A stretch of 40,983 nt of DNA, taken from sequence record SRR22947727_1410. The stretch is one strand, 5' to 3'. The stretch's first letter is position 1, and every line of letters begins with the position of its first letter. Below are positions 6,024 through 32,324 of the stretch, piece by piece. The notes below the pieces were generated by a model that saw nothing but the letters and a program-made list of their open reading frames with translations, made no database searches and was not told the DNA's origin. The translations under genes and the position numbers were made by a program.

Positions 6024-7330
6024 TGCGCCCGAATGGTCTTTTAATTTCTGCACCCAGCTCAGGCACCGGCAAAACAACCGTTATGCTGGGGTTGCTCCGG
6101 GCATTTTCTGATCGCGGCCTTGCCGTTCAACCGTTTAAAAGTGGCCCCGATTATATCGATCCAGCTTTCCATTTTGCCGCTGCGCGCCGGGCATCGTTCA
6201 ACATTGACAGCTGGTCTATGAGCGCAGAGCTGATCGATGCGATCAGCCACCAGGCGTCTGGCGCGGAATTGATCATTGCAGAAGGCTCAATGGGGTTGTT
6301 TGACGGTGTGGCAACGCGGGGCGCTGAGGGGTATGGAAGCAGCGCCGAAACGGCCCAAAGATTGGGCTGGCCGGTTGTGTTGGTGATCGATGTTTCTGGG
6401 CAGGCCCAATCCGCTGCGGCAACCGCTTTCGGCTTTAAAACCTATGCGCCTGATCTCAATATTGCAGGGGTTATCTTAAACCGGGTTGCCAGCCCGCGCC
6501 ATGAACGTTTGGCAAGATTGGGTATGCAAAAAGCGGGAATTGAGGTGTTTGGATCGTTGCCAAGGCGCGGTGATCTTGCGCTTCCCGAGCGGCATCTAGG
6601 GCTTATTCAGGCCGTAGAGCATCCTGATTTGGAAACCGCGGTTGCTGGTTATGCGCAATTTTTAAAAGATCACGTGGATCTGGATGCGTTGTTTGCGGCC
6701 GCATCCGGATCTGCTGTTGCGCGGCCGGGGCGCTGGGCATCCCCGCCGGCCCAGAAAATTGCCATCGCGCGCGATGCTGCTTTTTCTTTCACCTATCCGC
6801 ATCTATTGGAAAGCTGGCGCGCGGCAGGTGCAAGCATTCTGCCGTTTTCGCCTTTATCTGATGAGCCTGTTCCACCCTCTGACTTGGTCATCTTACCCGG
6901 GGGGTATCCAGAGCTGCACGCGGGCAAGCTGGCTTCGGCACATAATTTTTGGAACAGTTTGCGGGCGCATGCGGCACAAAACCCCGTTCATGGCGAATGC
7001 GGCGGCTATATGGCGCTAGGAGAAGCCCTGATTGATAAGCAGGGTGTCTCGCATAAAATGGCAGGGTTGCTTGGTTTGGTAACCAGTTATGAAAAACGCA
7101 AATTTCATTTGGGCTATCGCCAAGCCCATCTATGCGCCCCCGCTTTGGGCTTTGCGAAAGGCACAAAATTGCGCGGTCATGAATTTCATTATTCAAGCAT
7201 TCTCAACCAACCCGACGCAGCATTGGCTGATGTGTTCGATGCCGATGGCAATTCAGTCGCCGAAACCGGCTCTTTTCGCGGATATGTCAGCGGGACCTTT
7301 TTCCATTTGATTGATGAGGCGCAAAAGTGA
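6023..7330 (+). CDS. cobB: Hydrogenobyrinate/cobyrinate a,c-diamide synthase
   Basis: P-loop SGTGKTT, FKSGPDYIDP, EGSMGLFDG, LPERHLGL, and a glutaminase domain with GECGG and GHEFHYS. Confidence 0.95.
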   Translation: MRPNGLLISAPSSGTGKTTVMLGLLRAFSDRGLAVQPFKSGPDYIDPAFHFAAARRASFNIDSWSMSAELIDAISHQASGAELIIAEGSMGLFDGVATRGAEGYGSSAETAQRLGWPVVLVIDVSGQAQSAAATAFGFKTYAPDLNIAGVILNRVASPRHERLARLGMQKAGIEVFGSLPRRGDLALPERHLGLIQAVEHPDLETAVAGYAQFLKDHVDLDALFAAASGSAVARPGRWASPPAQKIAIARDAAFSFTYPHLLESWRAAGASILPFSPLSDEPVPPSDLVILPGGYPELHAGKLASAHNFWNSLRAHAAQNPVHGECGGYMALGEALIDKQGVSHKMAGLLGLVTSYEKRKFHLGYRQAHLCAPALGFAKGTKLRGHEFHYSSILNQPDAALADVFDADGNSVAETGSFRGYVSGTFFHLIDEAQK

Positions 7331-9137: not shown

Positions 9138-9893
9138 ATGATTGATCTGTATTTCATCGGCATCGGGATGGGCAATCCAGATCATTTAACCAGACAGGCG
9201 ATTGCCGAACTTCAAACCGCTGATGTTATTCTAATCCCGCATAAAGGCGCCCAAAAATCTGATCTTGCCGATTTGCGCAAAACTATTTGTGAAAAATGTC
9301 TCGAGCCAATCCCGCCTTTGGTTTATTTTGATCTTCCCAAACGCGATTCCAAAACCAAAACCTATCTAGAGGGGGTTGTTGATTGGCACAGCGCGATCGC
9401 CAAAACTTGGCAGGATACGCTGCACAGAACGCTTCCAAATGGTGGCAAAGCGGCGCTTATGATCTGGGGTGACCCCTCTCTTTATGACAGCAGCTTGCGC
9501 ATTGCCCAAAGGTTAAACCCGCGCAAAGCAGCAATCCGCATCACTGTGGTTCCGGGATTGACATCAGTTCAACTGCTAACCGCGGCGCATGCCATTCCCC
9601 TTAATGCTTTAGGAGCAGCCGTCACCTATACAACGGGGCGCAATTTGGCAAATCACGGTTGGCCTGATAAATGTGAAAGCTTGGTTGTAATGCTGGATGG
9701 TCAAACCGCGTTTGATCGATTGGATCCAGACGCGTTTGAAATATGGTGGGGTGCATTTTTGGGCATGCCAGAGCAGATTTTAATCAGCGGCCGGCTTTCT
9801 TCGTGTTGCGAAGAGATAAAAACCACGCGCCAGCGCGCCCGTGAAACTCATGGCTGGATTATGGACACGTATCTATTAAGACCTGTTCCGTAA
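9138..9893 (+). CDS. cobF: Precorrin-6A synthase (deacetylating)
   Basis: Motifs IGIGMGNPDHLT, WGDPSLYDS, TTGR, WWGAFLG and HGWIMDTYLLR. Confidence 0.95.
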   Translation: MIDLYFIGIGMGNPDHLTRQAIAELQTADVILIPHKGAQKSDLADLRKTICEKCLEPIPPLVYFDLPKRDSKTKTYLEGVVDWHSAIAKTWQDTLHRTLPNGGKAALMIWGDPSLYDSSLRIAQRLNPRKAAIRITVVPGLTSVQLLTAAHAIPLNALGAAVTYTTGRNLANHGWPDKCESLVVMLDGQTAFDRLDPDAFEIWWGAFLGMPEQILISGRLSSCCEEIKTTRQRARETHGWIMDTYLLRPVP

Positions 9894-26683: not shown

Positions 26684-26885
26684 GCTTTGACCTTTCTTGA
26701 AACTGCAAACACTAAGTATTTCCGCGTATGATCTATGTTGCATCCCAATTCTGCCTTCGCCAAATAACGGCTCTTAAGCATTAAAAGCGACATGGGGATT
26801 GCTTTCTTCCTTCAAACCGACATTTGACCTGTTTTCAGCACCGCGACCACTTGCACCTGACGGCGTGGCGTTTTACCAGTCACAA

Positions 26886-28448
26886 ATGGAACACCAGCAT
26901 CACGAACGCCTGTTAATCATCGACTTTGGCAGTCAGGTAACGCAATTGATTGCCCGCCGCTTGCGCGAGTTAAACGTCTATTGTGAAATTCACCCATATC
27001 AAAATATCTCAGACGCCTTTTTAAGTGCCTTTGCACCGCGTGCCGTGATATTTTCTGGGGGGCCAGCCTCGGTCTTTGATGCGGGGGCTCCGCGTCCACC
27101 ACTTTCTGTCTATGAGCTTGGAGTGCCCATTTTGGGAATATGTTATGGCCAGCAGGTTATGATGGATATGTTGGGTGGTAGGGTCGAGCGCGGTCATAAA
27201 ACGGCAGAATTTGGCCGCGCCTATGTGTCTCAAACAGGCGATGAGCTGGATCTATTACAGGGATGGTTTGCGCAAGAGCGCGAGCAAGTCTGGATGTCGC
27301 ATGGGGATCATGTCAGCGCGATCGCTCCGGGGTTTAGCGTCTATGGAACCTCGCCAAACGCGCCATTTGCGATCACCGCAAATCTCGAGAAACAATTTTA
27401 TGCGGTCCAGTTTCACCCAGAGGTACACCATACGCCAAACGGCGCTATGCTTTATGAAAATTTTGTAAAAATTGCTGGGTTTTCAGGCGATTGGACGATG
27501 GGCGCATATCGCGAACAAGCCTTGGAGGCGATCAGAAAGCAAGTTGGCGACAAAAAAGTGATTTGCGGATTATCTGGGGGTGTCGACAGTTCGGTGGCTG
27601 CCGTTTTGATCCATGAGGCGATTGGCGATCAGCTCACCTGCGTGTTCGTAGACCACGGCTTGCTGCGAAAAGAGGAAGCCACGGAGGTGGTTGCGATGTT
27701 TCGGGATCACTACAACATGCCCTTCATCCACGCCCAAGAATCCGAGCTGTTTCTTGGCGCCTTAGACGGGCAATCCGACCCTGAAACCAAGCGTAAAATC
27801 ATTGGCGGCTTGTTTATCGACGTGTTTCAAAAATATGCAGATCAAATTGAGGGCGCAGAATTTTTAGCACAGGGCACGCTTTATCCGGATGTGATCGAAT
27901 CTGTATCCTTTAGCGGTGGCCCATCGGTGACGATAAAATCACATCATAATGTTGGCGGACTTCCCGAGAAAATGGGCTTGAAACTTGTGGAACCGCTGAG
28001 AGAGCTATTTAAGGATGAGGTGCGCGCCCTGGGCCGCGAACTTGGATTGCCCGACAGCTTTATCGGGCGGCATCCCTTCCCAGGGCCCGGCCTGGCCATT
28101 CGCTGCCCTGGTGAGATCACCCGCGCTAAACTGGATATTCTAAGGGAAGCTGACGCGGTCTATATTGATCAAATTCGCAAACACGGCCTATATGATCACA
28201 TCTGGCAGGCCTTCGTGGCGATTTTGCCAGTGCGCACGGTTGGCGTGATGGGGGATGGACGCACCTATGATTATGCCTGCGCGCTGCGTGCTGTCACCTC
28301 GGTGGATGGTATGACGGCCGATTATTATCCATTTTCTCATGAGTTTCTGGGCGAAACCGCAACGCGAATTATCAATGAGGTCGAAGGCATCAATCGGGTG
28401 ACCTATGATATCACATCAAAGCCACCAGGAACGATTGAGTGGGAATGA
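26886..28448 (+). CDS. guaA: GMP synthase (glutamine-hydrolysing)
   Basis: Motifs [33 protein letters not shown] and C-terminal KPPGTIEWE. Confidence 0.98.
28428..28448 (+). repeat. att direct repeat copy 1 (3' end of guaA)
   Basis: GGAACGATTGAGTGGGAATGA; 19/21 identical to copies 2 and 3, with the last 15 nt identical. Confidence 0.92.
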
Positions 28449-28628
28449 AGATAGCATCTTAAGTATCTGTTATTATTATATATTATTAATTTACGCTAAT
28501 AAAATCCAAGAACTAAGTAACTGTTTTTAAATAAGAAATAATATTAACTTGCAAACTTTTATACAAAATAATAGCACTATTACATTTCATAGATTAGGGA
28601 TGAATTTAAGAGTGAGGAGCATCATGAA

Positions 28629-29339
28629 ATGAAGACAGTTTTTATTACAGGAACCAATAAAGGATTAGGACTTGAGTTTACAAAGCAGTACTTAAATGAA
28701 GGCTGGAACGTAATTGCTACTTGCCGTTCACCTACTACGGCTACAGATTTATTATCGCTTAGCAAGAAGCATCCAAATAGCCTGACAATTTTGAGCATGG
28801 ATTTAACAAACGAGGCGTCGATTGAACAAATTAGCGAAGAAATTAAAGAACGCCCCATCGATATATTTATAAGTAATGCCGGAACAGCAACAGGTTATAC
28901 ATCTGGAGCGAATTTAAATGATTTTGGAAATGTTCAATCTGAGCCATGGGTAAATATTTTCCGCACAAATTGCGTTGCACCTTTGCTTTTAGCACAGGTT
29001 GTTCACCCAAATATTTTATTGGGCTCAGACAAGAAATTAATTTTCATCACGTCTAAGCCAGCTTCCATAACTGAGAATACGGGCGGCGCACTTTATATGA
29101 ACCGCTCAAGCAGAACGGCGCTTAACCAAGTAATAAAATCACTGTCTATAGATTTATACGAAGAAGGAATCGCTGTTGCATCAGTTAGTCCAGGTTGGGT
29201 GAAAACAGACTCTGGCGGTGACGGTGCTTTAATCGATGCTGAGACTAGTGTGAGCGGTATTAAAAAGGTGATTGAAGAACTTGATATGAGCCAAACAGCT
29301 CTGTACTGCGATTACAAGGGTGAAGCAATCTCTTGGTGA
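28629..29339 (+). CDS. SDR family oxidoreductase (CsgA/C-factor-like) with atypical active-site motif
   Basis: Motifs TGTNKGLG, ISNAG and SPGWVKTD; NRSSR occupies the YxxxK position. It has a GAGGAG RBS. Confidence 0.88.
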   Translation: MKTVFITGTNKGLGLEFTKQYLNEGWNVIATCRSPTTATDLLSLSKKHPNSLTILSMDLTNEASIEQISEEIKERPIDIFISNAGTATGYTSGANLNDFGNVQSEPWVNIFRTNCVAPLLLAQVVHPNILLGSDKKLIFITSKPASITENTGGALYMNRSSRTALNQVIKSLSIDLYEEGIAVASVSPGWVKTDSGGDGALIDAETSVSGIKKVIEELDMSQTALYCDYKGEAISW

Positions 29340-29343
29340 GTAC

Positions 29344-29376
29344 GTTAAAAGTTTTCGTTTACTTAAAACTTTTAAC
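29344..29376. terminator. 12-bp inverted repeat after the cassette 1 gene
   Basis: GTTAAAAGTTTT-N9-AAAACTTTTAAC. It is AT-rich, so a terminator role is uncertain. The right arm recurs at 30725-30736 in cassette 2. Confidence 0.4.
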
Positions 29377-29461
29377 TCTCAATCTTGCACAGAATGTAAG
29401 ATGAGTGAACTTAACCGCTTGTTATTATTGGATTGTAATAGTTGCAGGCTTCACCTTAAAC

Positions 29462-29489
29462 TTGCATAATGTTGCATAATGTTGCATAA
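29462..29489 (+). repeat. 10-bp tandem repeat, about 2.8 copies of TTGCATAATG
   Basis: TTGCATAATG TTGCATAATG TTGCATAA, read directly from the sequence. Confidence 0.85.
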
Positions 29490-29539
29490 ACCTTACATAG
29501 TCTCAAAATATTATAATAATATCAATAACTTACATCATC

Positions 29540-29560
29540 GGCACTATTGAGTGGGAATGA
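29540..29560 (+). repeat. att direct repeat copy 2
   Basis: GGCACTATTGAGTGGGAATGA, which also encodes GTIEWE-stop. Confidence 0.92.
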
Positions 29561-29650
29561 CCCAAGATTTTAAGTCATTGTTTTTATTATATTAATTTTA
29601 GTTTAGCTGAGCCCTGGGAAAAGCTAAGCCTATGGTAATAATAGAAAATT

Positions 29651-29679
29651 TTGACAAAAATTTTAAAAAGTTACATAGT
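29651..29679 (+). promoter_or_regulatory. Candidate sigma70 promoter inside cassette 2
   Basis: TTGACA-N17-CATAGT. The AT-rich context lowers its specificity. Confidence 0.4.
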
Positions 29680-29841
29680 TTAGACACTACTAAAAATAAT
29701 AGTGCAAACTTTCAGTATATGTTAACGTTGAATTGTTACAGAACAAGTCCATGAATTGCATTACTAGGCCAATAGTATTATTTTAATTGATTATAAAAAT
29801 TTTTTCTATTTAAATGATCTCACTCTGATAGGAACTTAACT

Positions 29842-30657
29842 ATGAAGCTTGTTTTCAAGATATTAACCGTTGCACTTTCACTAACAGTGTTTGGAGTGGC
29901 ACAATCTGCGGCAGATGAAAACAAAGATAAAAAGTTAAAACAGCTAGAGGCCTTGCTCCAAACCTACATTCAAGAAAACATTTCACTTACACAAAAAGTT
30001 AACACGCTAGAGCAAAAAATCAGAGCAGCAGCAAATTTATTAAATACATCCTTAGAAAAAACGCTGGTCGACAAACCAGAGAGTCAATCATTAGGAACAG
30101 AACAAAAAACCAATGATACTCCTGTCAATTTGTCTTCAGAACAAAAATGTAAACTCGATTTGGCAAACTGTAGAAAATTTGATTTGTGCAAAACTGCGAC
30201 ATTCAGGCTAAATGGGAAAACGCAATGGAAAGTCGATCGCTACAAAATTTTTGTTGATGAGGCTAAACGAAGAGGATTTAGTTGCGGAGTAAAAACAACG
30301 AACAATGCATCTAAGAAAAAGATTTCTGTACCTACACCTGAACCAACTACAGAAAAGAAACTCAGATTTGAATGGGACAACTCATGTAAAAGTCCAGCAC
30401 GGTTGAGTAGTGCAAAAGGCTTGCTGTGGCATGGAATGACGTCTCCCGTGAGACCTGGTGTTTCGTACGATATTCAAGTTCAAGGAACGATCCAAAGTAA
30501 AAATATGAGCATAACCATCGAGAACTCAAAAATCATTATGTATCAGATTGTTACGAATACTTATGGAAATAAATACAGAGTAACCCAGAAAATTGTGTCA
30601 AAAGGTGGTGCTGGCGTCATCCAAGACAAAACATATACTTTAATAGAATGTAATTAA
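29842..30657 (+). CDS. Hypothetical exported protein with a coiled coil and a Cys-rich module
   Basis: 271 aa ORF with a Sec-type signal peptide (..AQSAA), a heptad-rich segment and CKLDLANC..LC..EAKRRGFSCGV. Confidence 0.8.
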   Translation: MKLVFKILTVALSLTVFGVAQSAADENKDKKLKQLEALLQTYIQENISLTQKVNTLEQKIRAAANLLNTSLEKTLVDKPESQSLGTEQKTNDTPVNLSSEQKCKLDLANCRKFDLCKTATFRLNGKTQWKVDRYKIFVDEAKRRGFSCGVKTTNNASKKKISVPTPEPTTEKKLRFEWDNSCKSPARLSSAKGLLWHGMTSPVRPGVSYDIQVQGTIQSKNMSITIENSKIIMYQIVTNTYGNKYRVTQKIVSKGGAGVIQDKTYTLIECN

Positions 30658-30881
30658 GGCAGTTTGCCTGATTATATATTTGATTTAAGCACAATACAGC
30701 TCAGGGTTTATTTTTCAGAAAGTAAAAACTTTTAACTTATTTAGTATGCAGCTTGGACATTATTAAGTTCATGATATCCTTCAACTTAAACGGTTAATTA
30801 CACCTTTGCCTTTGAGATAAAAGTTACTTAAATGTTACATATCTCAAAAATAGAAGCGCAAAATCAATAATTTACAACATA

Positions 30882-30902
30882 GGCACTATTGAGTGGGAAT
30901 GA
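30882..30902 (+). repeat. att direct repeat copy 3
   Basis: GGCACTATTGAGTGGGAATGA, identical to copy 2. Confidence 0.92.
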
Positions 30903-31261
30903 GCGCGGCGGTGGTCAACACCGATACGGCTGAATATTATATCTGGCGCGATGGCTTTTATGGTTGGCAACTTGTCAGGTTTGAACAACTAAGCGTCATT
31001 TAGGAGCGCATATCCCCCAGCACCGCTGAAAGGCGACATCACCATGCGGGTGCGGAACAGTTCTTTTACGTTGCGTCTGGTGTTCCGTCGATGGAACTTG
31101 ATGGGGAGATCTCCGCTCTTCATTTGCAGCAAGGCATCCATGTGAGCGCGAGCGCCTAACACCAGATCACCAACCGGCCTCGGTCTGATCTGCTGTTCAC
31201 CGTCACCTCGACCCCGCCACGTCACGTCACGTCACGTCACGTTGACAGGGTGATGATGTAA
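30899..31261 (+). pseudogene. Cupin-domain protein pseudogene
   Basis: Manual translation gives MSAAVVNTDTAEYYIWRDGFYGWQLVRFEQLSVI*ERISPSTAERRHHHAGAEQFFYVASG..QQGIHVSASA*HQITN..FTVTSTPPRH..DRVMM*. Cupin motifs are retained, with in-frame stops at 31001 (TAG) and 31157 (TAA). Confidence 0.8.
31218..31242 (+). repeat. (CACGT)5 microsatellite
   Basis: Five perfect copies read directly from the sequence. Confidence 0.9.
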
Positions 31262-31663
31262 AATACCAGTCCCTTAAGCCTGCTGGGTTAAAAAATTATA
31301 AGAGAGAAACCAGGTAAATATTAGGCTTATTTTAAGAAACCAGTTATCCCTCACCGGCAACTGGGTTTTGAGGAAATGTCCTGTGATGGCCATTTGCATA
31401 ATCGGGACGAACTTGGGGCTTGGGGCTTAGGTTGCATTTAACCAGACAGTATCTGATTGTAACCATGCTTCGCTGGCGTCCCGGTAACGGACGCATTGCC
31501 ACAAGCACAAATGCATGGCAATGCTGATTGGCTCTTAGTCACTCTAAAGCGCTTATAATCAATATCTTGTAGTTCAGTTTATGGCAGGGAATGACTATTC
31601 GCTGACAATATGCTTTGACTACTGCTGTTACCTAAATACAGAAACCTCAGAAGTAAAAATAAA

Positions 31664-32158
31664 ATGGACTTGTTGGATGTAGCGTTAATCTTTTCTATCT
31701 TATCCTGCAGTTTAGTAGGCGGATTCATTTTCACATATGCAATTGTTGTGATGCCTGGTTTATCCAGCCTTAGTGACAAAGATTTTTTAAGAGCGTTTCA
31801 GGTGACGGACGCTATAATACAAGACAACCAGCCGCTATTCATTTTCACTTGGGTAGGGTCTATGGTGGCAATGTTTATGATGATTGTCGTTTCATCTGTA
31901 CGTGTTGAACTAGCAGAAGCATGGCCAATTGTTCTAATCAGTGTTGCATATCTGGTGGGGGTGCAAGGCATAACTGAGGCATTCCATATTCCCTTAAACA
32001 ACCATATACAAAACCTTATAATCGAAGATTTGAATGATGAAACCTTGGCTGATGAACGCTTGAAATTTGAAGCAAAGTGGAATTTCTTTAATTACATTCG
32101 AACAGGAATAGCCCTTTCTGTCAGCTTTTTACTGCTCATAATATTAAGTTTACGCTAA
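31664..32158 (+). CDS. DUF1772/anthrone oxygenase-like membrane protein
   Basis: Motifs GFIFTYAIVVMPGL, HIPLNN and R..FE.KWN..N.IRT; four hydrophobic segments; AT-rich. Confidence 0.8.
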   Translation: MDLLDVALIFSILSCSLVGGFIFTYAIVVMPGLSSLSDKDFLRAFQVTDAIIQDNQPLFIFTWVGSMVAMFMMIVVSSVRVELAEAWPIVLISVAYLVGVQGITEAFHIPLNNHIQNLIIEDLNDETLADERLKFEAKWNFFNYIRTGIALSVSFLLLIILSLR

Positions 32159-32324
32159 CCAAATTTCTGTTAAGTTTATGATATTTATAAAAATATAAGA
32201 TCTAAGCGAAGGGATTTTAGCAGTTTCAGACTGATCAGAACGTACGATTTCACAGACGTTCCATTCGCCTATCCCAAAGCCAATAGATTTTGCGAAAGCA
32301 TTATGCTTGAGCACGCAAGGGGGG

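Follow-up and report, generated by a model that had tools for sequence, protein, structure and literature searches.

In sequence record SRR22947727_1410, a stretch of 40,983 nucleotides from a marine alphaproteobacterium (the whole of which we call the window), two foreign single-gene units are stacked in tandem behind the 3' end of guaA, the gene for GMP synthase. Together they make up 2454 bp of inserted DNA that separate guaA from the flank normally found downstream of it. We regard it as probable that this insert consists of two non-autonomous, att-flanked integrative cassettes that depend on a helper and were inserted by a family of 411-amino-acid (aa) tyrosine integrases, or by a close one.

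The boundaries of the two units are site-specific. The guaA 3' end (GGAACGATTGAGTGGGAATGA, positions 28428-28448) recurs as the 21-mer GGCACTATTGAGTGGGAATGA at 29540-29560 and again at 30882-30902; these two copies (copies 2 and 3) do not differ from each other and agree with the guaA copy at 19 of 21 positions, and all three encode GTIEWE followed by a stop codon. The 15-mer core at the end of each copy, ATTGAGTGGGAATGA, was found three times in the window with at most one mismatch, against 0.00 expected from 100 shuffles, and a repeat search of the window gave spacings of 1112 and 1342 bp. A previous reading of this stretch from its letters only (hereafter the sequence-only reading) had described a repeated guaA end that bounds AT-rich units of these two lengths, and the three cores bear it out. 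The GC content is 0.27-0.42 over 28350-30900 (0.36 for unit 1 and 0.33 for unit 2) and about 0.47-0.56 on either side. Each unit holds one large open reading frame (ORF) on the + strand, co-oriented with guaA, and the two units have a common left arm (26 nucleotides (nt), 81%) and a common right arm (83 nt, 76%). The parts of the array are as follows, the class of right arm being defined further below:

26799..28448, + strand: guaA (GMP synthase; Pfam GMP_synt_C, 8.2e-41, and GATase, 1.6e-36), whose last 15 nt are the attachment core
28434..28448, + strand: core copy 1, attL-type, with the host left side followed by the left arm of cassette 1
28449..28628, + strand: left arm of cassette 1, with the motif TTAAGTATCTGTTATTATT; left-arm profile match at 28437-28532, E 8.6e-14
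28629..29339, + strand: cargo gene of cassette 1, a short-chain dehydrogenase/reductase (SDR) of 236 aa (PF00106, 1.4e-27)
29340..29545, + strand: right arm of cassette 1, class B; class-B profile match at 29430-29559, E 1.7e-29
29546..29560, + strand: core copy 2, the junction of cassette 1 and cassette 2
29561..29841, + strand: left arm of cassette 2, with TTTTAAGTCATTGTTTTTATT; left-arm profile match at 29549-29646, E 8.8e-10
29842..30657, + strand: cargo gene of cassette 2, a protein of 271 aa for which neither Pfam nor NCBIfam gave a family above cut-off
30658..30887, + strand: right arm of cassette 2, class B; class-B profile match at 30790-30901, E 2.3e-20
30888..30902, + strand: core copy 3, attR-type, with the cassette left side followed by the host flank GCGCGGCGGTGG

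Both cassettes carry short repeats of their own in the arms and have the hexamer ATCAAT 21 nt ahead of TGAGTGGGA in the right arm. The left arm of cassette 1 has one copy of its arm motif (CTTGCAAAC, 28548-28556) and the right arm has four 9-mers of the form (C/G)TT(G/A)CATA(A/G), spaced 10-11 nt apart, at 29461-29500. The corresponding motif of cassette 2 occurs once on the left (GTTACATAG, 29670-29678) and as GTTACTTAA and GTTACATAT, 11 nt apart, on the right (30823-30842). The number of arm repeats in cassette 1 varies: 10 nt are missing at 29462 in one metagenome contig, and the copies in a congener (G002) and at a metagenome locus (L052), both described below, have one repeat fewer than the window. 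The cassette 1 protein also matches NCBIfam PRK08177 (6.6e-48), below the cut-off of that family. The cassette 2 protein is essentially an orphan, with two matches at E<=0.001 among 5.8 billion proteins, one of which is the protein itself and the other a partial homologue with 73% identity over 49% of the query; its hydrophobic N-terminus, as we read it, looks like a signal peptide. TcpS, the only Pfam match of this protein, was considered as its family and rejected (20.6 bits against a cut-off of 28). The true start of guaA may be an ATG about 29 codons inside the annotated ORF.

No tyrosine recombinase was found in the window. A panel of 11 proteins, made up of 10 recombinases from the nearest genome (G001) and the integrase of G002, gave nothing at E<=1 by phmmer against the 134 window ORFs (read stop to stop, at least 80 aa), and tblastn with the guaA-specific integrase described below gave no match in the 41-kb window. 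The sequence-only reading had recognised neither an integrase nor a transposase in the 41 kb; the first part stands for tyrosine recombinases, and transposases and serine recombinases were not searched for. Downstream of the array, the AT-rich stretch 31500-32300 (GC 0.34-0.40), with a gene for an Anthrone_oxy/DUF1772 membrane protein, was considered as a further cassette and rejected: it is conserved at 100% in G001 and at 84% in G002, and it is therefore not a recent insertion. The host flank 3' of the array also contains, at 31206-31249, a short tandem run of CACGT units (CACGTCACGTCACGTCACGTCACGT).

Empty site and integrase islands at the guaA end

The nearest genome, G001, has a guaA that is 100% identical to that of the window over 1650 nt and a flank that is 98% identical, and it contains the exact empty site: guaA is joined straight to the flank through a single core, with a 22-nt overlap. 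No cassette DNA was found elsewhere in G001, where the best match had an E-value of 0.048. The units are discrete insertions with their breakpoints in the core, as had been proposed from the window, and the empty site predicted on that basis is the one seen in G001.

We also mapped the contigs of four marine metagenome runs from four studies on the locus, using assembled contigs and not reads. Contigs with the empty-site junction, in which the last letters of guaA are joined to position 30881 onward, were found in all four runs at depths of 126-694. Summed over contigs in the four runs, depth was about 200-2600 for guaA and the flank, about 5-435 for cassette 1 and about 2-8 for cassette 2, these values being contig sums and not copy numbers. 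Several different AT-rich left arms continue after position 28448 (four contigs in run X1, five in run X4). The junction of cassette 1 and cassette 2 is not spanned with at least 31 letters by any contig of the four runs. Further, a conspecific metagenome contig (L046), whose guaA protein is 100% identical to that of the window and which has the same GCGCGGCGGTGG flank, carries a 10.7-kb integrase island at this site in place of the cassettes.

A second island is found in G002, a complete one-contig genome of the same genus whose guaA is identical to that of the window at 1527 of 1650 positions. The order in G002 is guaA, an SDR cassette, an integrase island, a 1.1-kb FMN_bind_2 cassette, a 456-bp unit and the flank. 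The SDR cassette is a copy of cassette 1 (1009/1077 positions identical), the island begins with a 411-aa tyrosine integrase and has a class-A right arm at 9422-9557, and the FMN_bind_2 cassette closes with a class-B arm. The 411-aa integrase matched only PF00589, plus DUF6538 below threshold. It is rare in the host family, where two of 301 genomes had a match at E<=1e-20, namely G002 and a 27%-identical paralogue elsewhere in G001. In the protein collection it has 1693 relatives at E<=1e-10, many of them at least 80% identical, from sources whose names include Luminiphilus, Thiosulfativibrio and Magnetovibrionaceae.

The integrase is specific for guaA. We looked at the metagenome loci of the best 80 of 564 relatives, of which 51 have at least 250 nt upstream of the integrase gene, and in 37 of these 51 informative loci a guaA end lies upstream of the integrase (at 163-167 nt in 36 loci and 557 nt in one). 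That relatives would hold a guaA-targeting integrase had been anticipated in the sequence-only reading. The guaA proteins at these 37 loci are 48-100% identical to that of the window. Six more loci follow the right arm of another island and are therefore tandems, and the other eight show neither arrangement. At the island left junctions examined (attL), host sequence ending in TGAGTGGGA is followed by the element letters GTAG or ATAG; at those right ends examined that abut non-element DNA, element sequence ending in TGAGTGGGA is followed by ATGA. From these junction letters, the crossover lies inside the 9-mer TGAGTGGGA and the element supplies the new stop codon.

The island backbone consists of the integrase, a second tyrosine recombinase of 190-210 aa on the opposite strand, DUF6626, variable cargo and DUF6641. 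By Pfam, no Rep, relaxase or AlpA was found in 10 ORFs of the G002 island region and 10 ORFs of the L046 island. The viral contig collection had no match to the core-plus-left-arm pattern or to the integrase protein. One metagenome locus (L049:85-2131) holds a minimal integrase element of about 2.1 kb, made up of the integrase gene, small ORFs of 98 and 118 aa and a right arm of class A, with no further cargo.

Right-arm classes, cargo and spread of the integrase-less units

Profiles built from the arms of cassettes and islands gave one common profile for the left arms and separated the right arms into two classes. Class A closes the integrase islands and class B closes the integrase-less units. 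In class A (31 arms), the box ATTGAT lies 29 nt ahead of TGAGTGGGA in 21 arms. In class B (16 arms), the box is ATCAAT, in the opposite orientation, and lies exactly 21 nt ahead of TGAGTGGGA in 13 arms; two to four direct 8-9-mers stand upstream of the box at a spacing of 10-11 nt, with a sequence that varies by cassette. The class-B box was found in 0/31 class-A arms, and the class-A box in no class-B arm. The cassette arms are conserved in design across units with different cargo.

Class-B units were found in the window (two), in G002 (two and a divergent mini-unit), at the metagenome loci L052, L061, L063, L066 and L067, and in four further genera of the host family. A pattern scan of 401 family genomes matched eight, with no matches in the control. 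Two of these were left out of account, namely G258, whose match has no arm by profile, and G391, which is a 2.2-kb contig. The four further genera (G122, G223, G262 and G412) have class-B units of 119-2998 bp directly 3' of guaA, with no integrase of the panel within about 8 kb; a genome-wide search of G122, G223 and G262 at E<=1e-20 found no match to the island integrase. The family tally is four genomes with orphan cassettes against one with the integrase. The arrays hold two to five units.

The Pfam families among the class-B cargo are SDR, FMN_bind_2, an AT3+SGNH acyltransferase, Wzz-like, sulfotransferase, GNAT, DUF6552, TPR and methyltransferase, and other cargo proteins have no family. 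The largest ORF is co-oriented with guaA in 13 of the 14 units that have an ORF of at least 60 aa, and the fourteenth probably has as its gene a degraded GNAT, which lies on the + strand.

Cassette 1 has spread horizontally. Between the window and L052 it is identical at 1077 of 1102 positions (97.7%) while the last 222 nt of guaA are identical at only 175 (78.8%), and from this difference we conclude that the cassette moved between hosts. A further copy at L115 matches the window at 582 of 587 positions. The locus varies between strains, as had been expected, with this same cassette in different hosts and array positions in G002, L052 and L115. The idea that the newest cassette lies next to guaA and pushes older ones outward is not borne out by these data: in G002 the SDR cassette stands between guaA and the island, whereas in L052 and L115 it lies beyond the island. 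All three of these loci, and also L061 and L067, have an island and a cassette in tandem. Other cassettes recur as well. The GNAT cassette immediately follows guaA in G122, and a degraded copy lies deep within the L067 array; the DUF6552 cassette was found in G223, G262 and L097. Judged by these comparisons of sequence, the units are discrete and have moved between hosts.

Some loci have further peculiarities. The guaA of G412 (L128, G412:C2:257000-275000) is a mosaic relative to that of the window, with 72.8% identity over residues 30-455 and 91.8% over the last 97 residues (the two matches overlap slightly), and the att-proximal end of guaA may have been exchanged there together with elements. 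The same locus has two units with identical sequence after the core, which suggests a duplication. At L067:131-2100, a 1970-bp unit between two guaA-type ends contains guaA 3' fragments (residues about 393-430 and 466-549) and a 367-aa ORF, and this element appears to have carried along a piece of the guaA of a former host. A strict right-arm pattern had three matches in the genome contig collection, with no cassette among the two examined (L021 and L023), one of which, in Oscillospiraceae, proved to be a native guaA end. The match on L021, a contig of a Flavobacterium metagenome-assembled genome, is exact over 26 nt with the end of the cassette 2 right arm plus the core (L021:5419-5443). It lies far from any guaA, by our reading of the frames within a two-component operon where a histidine-kinase gene ends and a response-regulator gene starts, and would not be expected by chance in 596 Gb.

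Mechanism and alternative explanations

The mechanism we favour would run as follows. Each cassette would be an attP-like site that carries one cargo gene and was opened at its core by integration. It has a left arm, then its gene in the orientation of guaA, then a right arm of about 130-230 bp, in which paired or multiple 8-9-mer repeats one helical turn apart accompany an ATCAAT box whose distance to the core is fixed. A tyrosine integrase would recombine within TGAGTGGGA at the guaA stop, so that insertion would restore the end ...TIEWE-stop. This enzyme is encoded neither by the cassettes nor by the window, and its likeliest supplier would be the guaA-specific 411-aa family, which rides on islands of 5-11 kb in the congener, in a conspecific and in marine Pseudomonadota. 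The cassettes might recombine by themselves in the form of small circles, or be carried along by an adjoining island, which later leaves without them. We infer that a member of this family acted, that it did so in trans and that a circular intermediate was formed; of these steps, an independent circle of about 1 kb is the least supported.

Several observations weigh against this mechanism. The same guaA site is also occupied by two further integrase families, which have 35% and 29% identity to the 411-aa integrase, and their arms have repeats of their own, with CAACAAACTAACAACAAACT in both arms of one and six tandem copies of GACTTAGTAAC in the other (L086:90-470 and 6180-6400; L050:9360-9720). 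Because at least two other integrase families use this site, the pairing of cassette and enzyme is one that we infer, and one of these families could be the true partner of the cassettes. The proposed link between the class-B arm and the 411-aa family draws on co-occurrence and on likeness of motifs, and the motif TTRCAYA, found in 31/31 island arms, is present in 8/16 cassette arms. At L063, an integrase is combined with a class-B arm and a class-A arm was not found; some cassettes may therefore be fused to islands or derived from them. No circle-type junction or excision product was found among the contigs of the four runs, and contigs cannot reveal rare forms. Promoter-like sites in the window are at chance level (10 found against 9.2 expected). 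Finally, the integrase searches for the window strain cover only the 41-kb window.

It is also conceivable, if rather unlikely, that the units arose by site-specific integration but that this strain received the segment from guaA to the flank from a conspecific by homologous recombination, so that the cassettes are now fixed scars and no longer mobile. Transformation or a gene transfer agent could provide such a route. The flanks are 98-100% identical to those of G001 and the window has no integrase, both of which suit this explanation, and the mosaic guaA of G412 fits recombination tracts that enter guaA here. However, it leaves unexplained the presence of cassette 1 in hosts with 78.8%-identical guaA ends, as well as the intact cores of all three window copies. 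Further, homologous transfer concerns the last step only and is compatible with helper-dependent integration.

We find it improbable that the units are decay remnants, left by internal deletion of integrase islands and either immobile or leaving with a neighbour. This is the strict meaning of a cis-mobilizable element (CIME), and descent by decay is the published default for integrase-less att-flanked units (PMC5704250, in the part that treats them). Signs of decay do exist at these loci. G002 has decayed cores and junctions: the right core of its island reads ACTGAATGGAG, and its FMN_bind_2 ORF is short (118 aa against a profile of 168 positions). L118 and L097 carry truncated integrase fragments, and the union of integrase and class-B arm at L063 points the same way. 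However, all 16 cassette right arms belong to a class whose ATCAAT orientation and spacing are absent from 31/31 island arms, which independent deletions would not create. The ends of cassette 1 are unchanged in four contexts, a large number of unrelated genes serve as cargo, and the window units were found to hold neither a fragment of an integrase nor a remnant of an island gene. The sequence-only reading had noted that relatives with the same cargo inside large integrase-bearing islands would speak for such remnants; the cargo was instead found beside islands, separately bounded and closed by a different type of arm.

Very improbable, in our judgement, is a true integron-like platform, that is, a fixed chromosomal capture site with dedicated cassettes inserted newest-first and no mobile helper. 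Arrays with one guaA-co-oriented gene per unit, diverse cargo and a conserved cassette-specific arm would agree with it. However, no resident integrase adjoins the site in the window, G001, G122, G223, G262 or G412; where an integrase is present, it rides an inserted, polymorphic element; the order is not consistently newest-first; and there was no sign of an IntI (no model-based search for attC-type sites was made). An assembly artefact, a repeat-driven chimera in a metagenome or draft assembly, can hardly be credited: the units do end in a common 15-21-nt repeat where short-read assemblers break, and many metagenome contigs end at the core, but an X1 contig (record 3) runs from guaA into cassette 1 over 28419-28623 with guaA contributing 30 letters, two other runs have contigs that reach from cassette 2 into the flank (albeit 12-14 letters past the core, below our 31-letter rule), and the complete genome of G002 has the same junction of guaA and cassette 1.

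Returning to helper-dependent integration, we tentatively hypothesize a broader picture, one we would not yet bet on, in which class-B units, far from being debris, have evolved across classes as a lineage of minimal 'hitcher' cassettes, with an attP design of their own that exploits widespread marine guaA-specific integrases. For free-living marine bacteria they would form an integron-like pool of exchangeable genes at the end of an essential gene, in which a transient helper island, and not the host, bears the recombinase. Enzymes that modify the envelope, small enzymes of metabolism and orphan proteins that are secreted would belong to this pool. If true, this would be a cheap route of gene exchange for marine bacteria, in which an enzyme-less unit of 0.5-3 kb is slotted behind an essential, conserved gene in hosts of different classes and can be lost again. 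It would also explain fine-scale differences between strains of natural populations, such as the very different contig depths of the empty site, cassette 1 and cassette 2 in the four runs.

Comparison with known systems

The comparisons that follow draw on the cited passages of each paper. The closest system is GIsul2, a guaA-targeting island of Beta- and Gammaproteobacteria whose integrase has been shown by experiment to excise and integrate a unit without an integrase, CR2-sul2, at the guaA core GAGTGGGA (PMC9376610). Tandem CR2-sul2 units that recreate perfect cores have been reported, and the integrase-less unit is commoner than the island (PMC9376610). The window units resemble this system in their guaA 3' target, in the core GAGTGGGA and in the pairing of an integrase-less, att-bounded unit with an integrase island beside it, and the greater prevalence of the integrase-less form is likewise seen in the host family here (four genomes against one). 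Unlike CR2-sul2, the units described here are 0.1-3 kb long, mostly carry one gene, have no ISCR/rcr2 transposase or resistance genes and have a conserved arm architecture of their own, and their hosts are marine Alpha- and Gammaproteobacteria. A tblastn search with the 411-aa integrase against 72,556 plasmids gave four weak alphaproteobacterial matches (22-28%) and none on an enterobacterial or Acinetobacter plasmid. With plasmid matches so few and weak, no close kinship to the plasmid-borne GIsul2 integrase appeared, a statement made without direct sequence comparison with that integrase.

CIMEs are described as decayed integrative and conjugative elements (ICEs) or integrative and mobilizable elements (IMEs) retaining attL and attR flanks and undergoing accretion with ICEs and IMEs (PMC5704250, section 2.3). 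The cassettes share with them the attL/attR flanks, the lack of integrase and transfer genes, and the tandem arrangement with elements of the same specificity at the 3' end of a conserved gene. They differ in having an arm type of their own that recurs with many cargoes, which points to a maintained lineage of minimal elements and not to random decay. As for the decay of an ICE or IME by which CIMEs are defined in that section, we found right arms that differ from 31/31 island arms and are conserved over 16 cassette arms.

Tycheposons of Prochlorococcus insert at tRNA genes and bring along both an integrase and a replication module of their own (10.1101/2020.12.28.424599). They too are marine cargo elements with tyrosine recombinases, in which repeated integration pushes earlier elements inward and leaves partial copies of the target, but the target here is guaA and the units are without an integrase. 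The main text of that work, supplements being outside our scope, has no mention of guaA. PIMEs are about 20 kb long, encode an integrase of their own, have an oriT and depend on a conjugative plasmid (10.64898/2026.01.12.698999). The likeness lies in their being non-autonomous, helper-dependent and integrated beside guaA, and the difference in that Pfam showed none of the PIME modules in the islands described here. In its main text, the PIME paper uses neither the word 'tandem' nor the word 'cassette'. Among the literature matches listed (supplements were outside the search), there was no account of such marine guaA cassette arrays.

With integrons, the arrays described here have in common that small, mostly single-gene, co-oriented and diverse cassettes gather at one site through a tyrosine recombinase. 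They differ from integrons in that no intI lies by the array and neither an attI nor an attC was identified (without a run of an attC model), that the site is within the end of an essential gene, that each cassette has long AT-rich arms and about 180-280 bp ahead of its gene, and that the integrase is on a mobile helper.

The sequence-only reading had left open that the arrangement might be undescribed, but GIsul2/CR2-sul2, CIMEs and tycheposons cover the concept, and because these concepts match, the units are not new in kind. Rather, they are a small, dedicated variant of known helper-dependent integrative units: the principle is known from the GIsul2/CR2-sul2 resistance islands, and the value of the present case lies in how minimal the units are, in their dedicated arm architecture and in their ecological reach.

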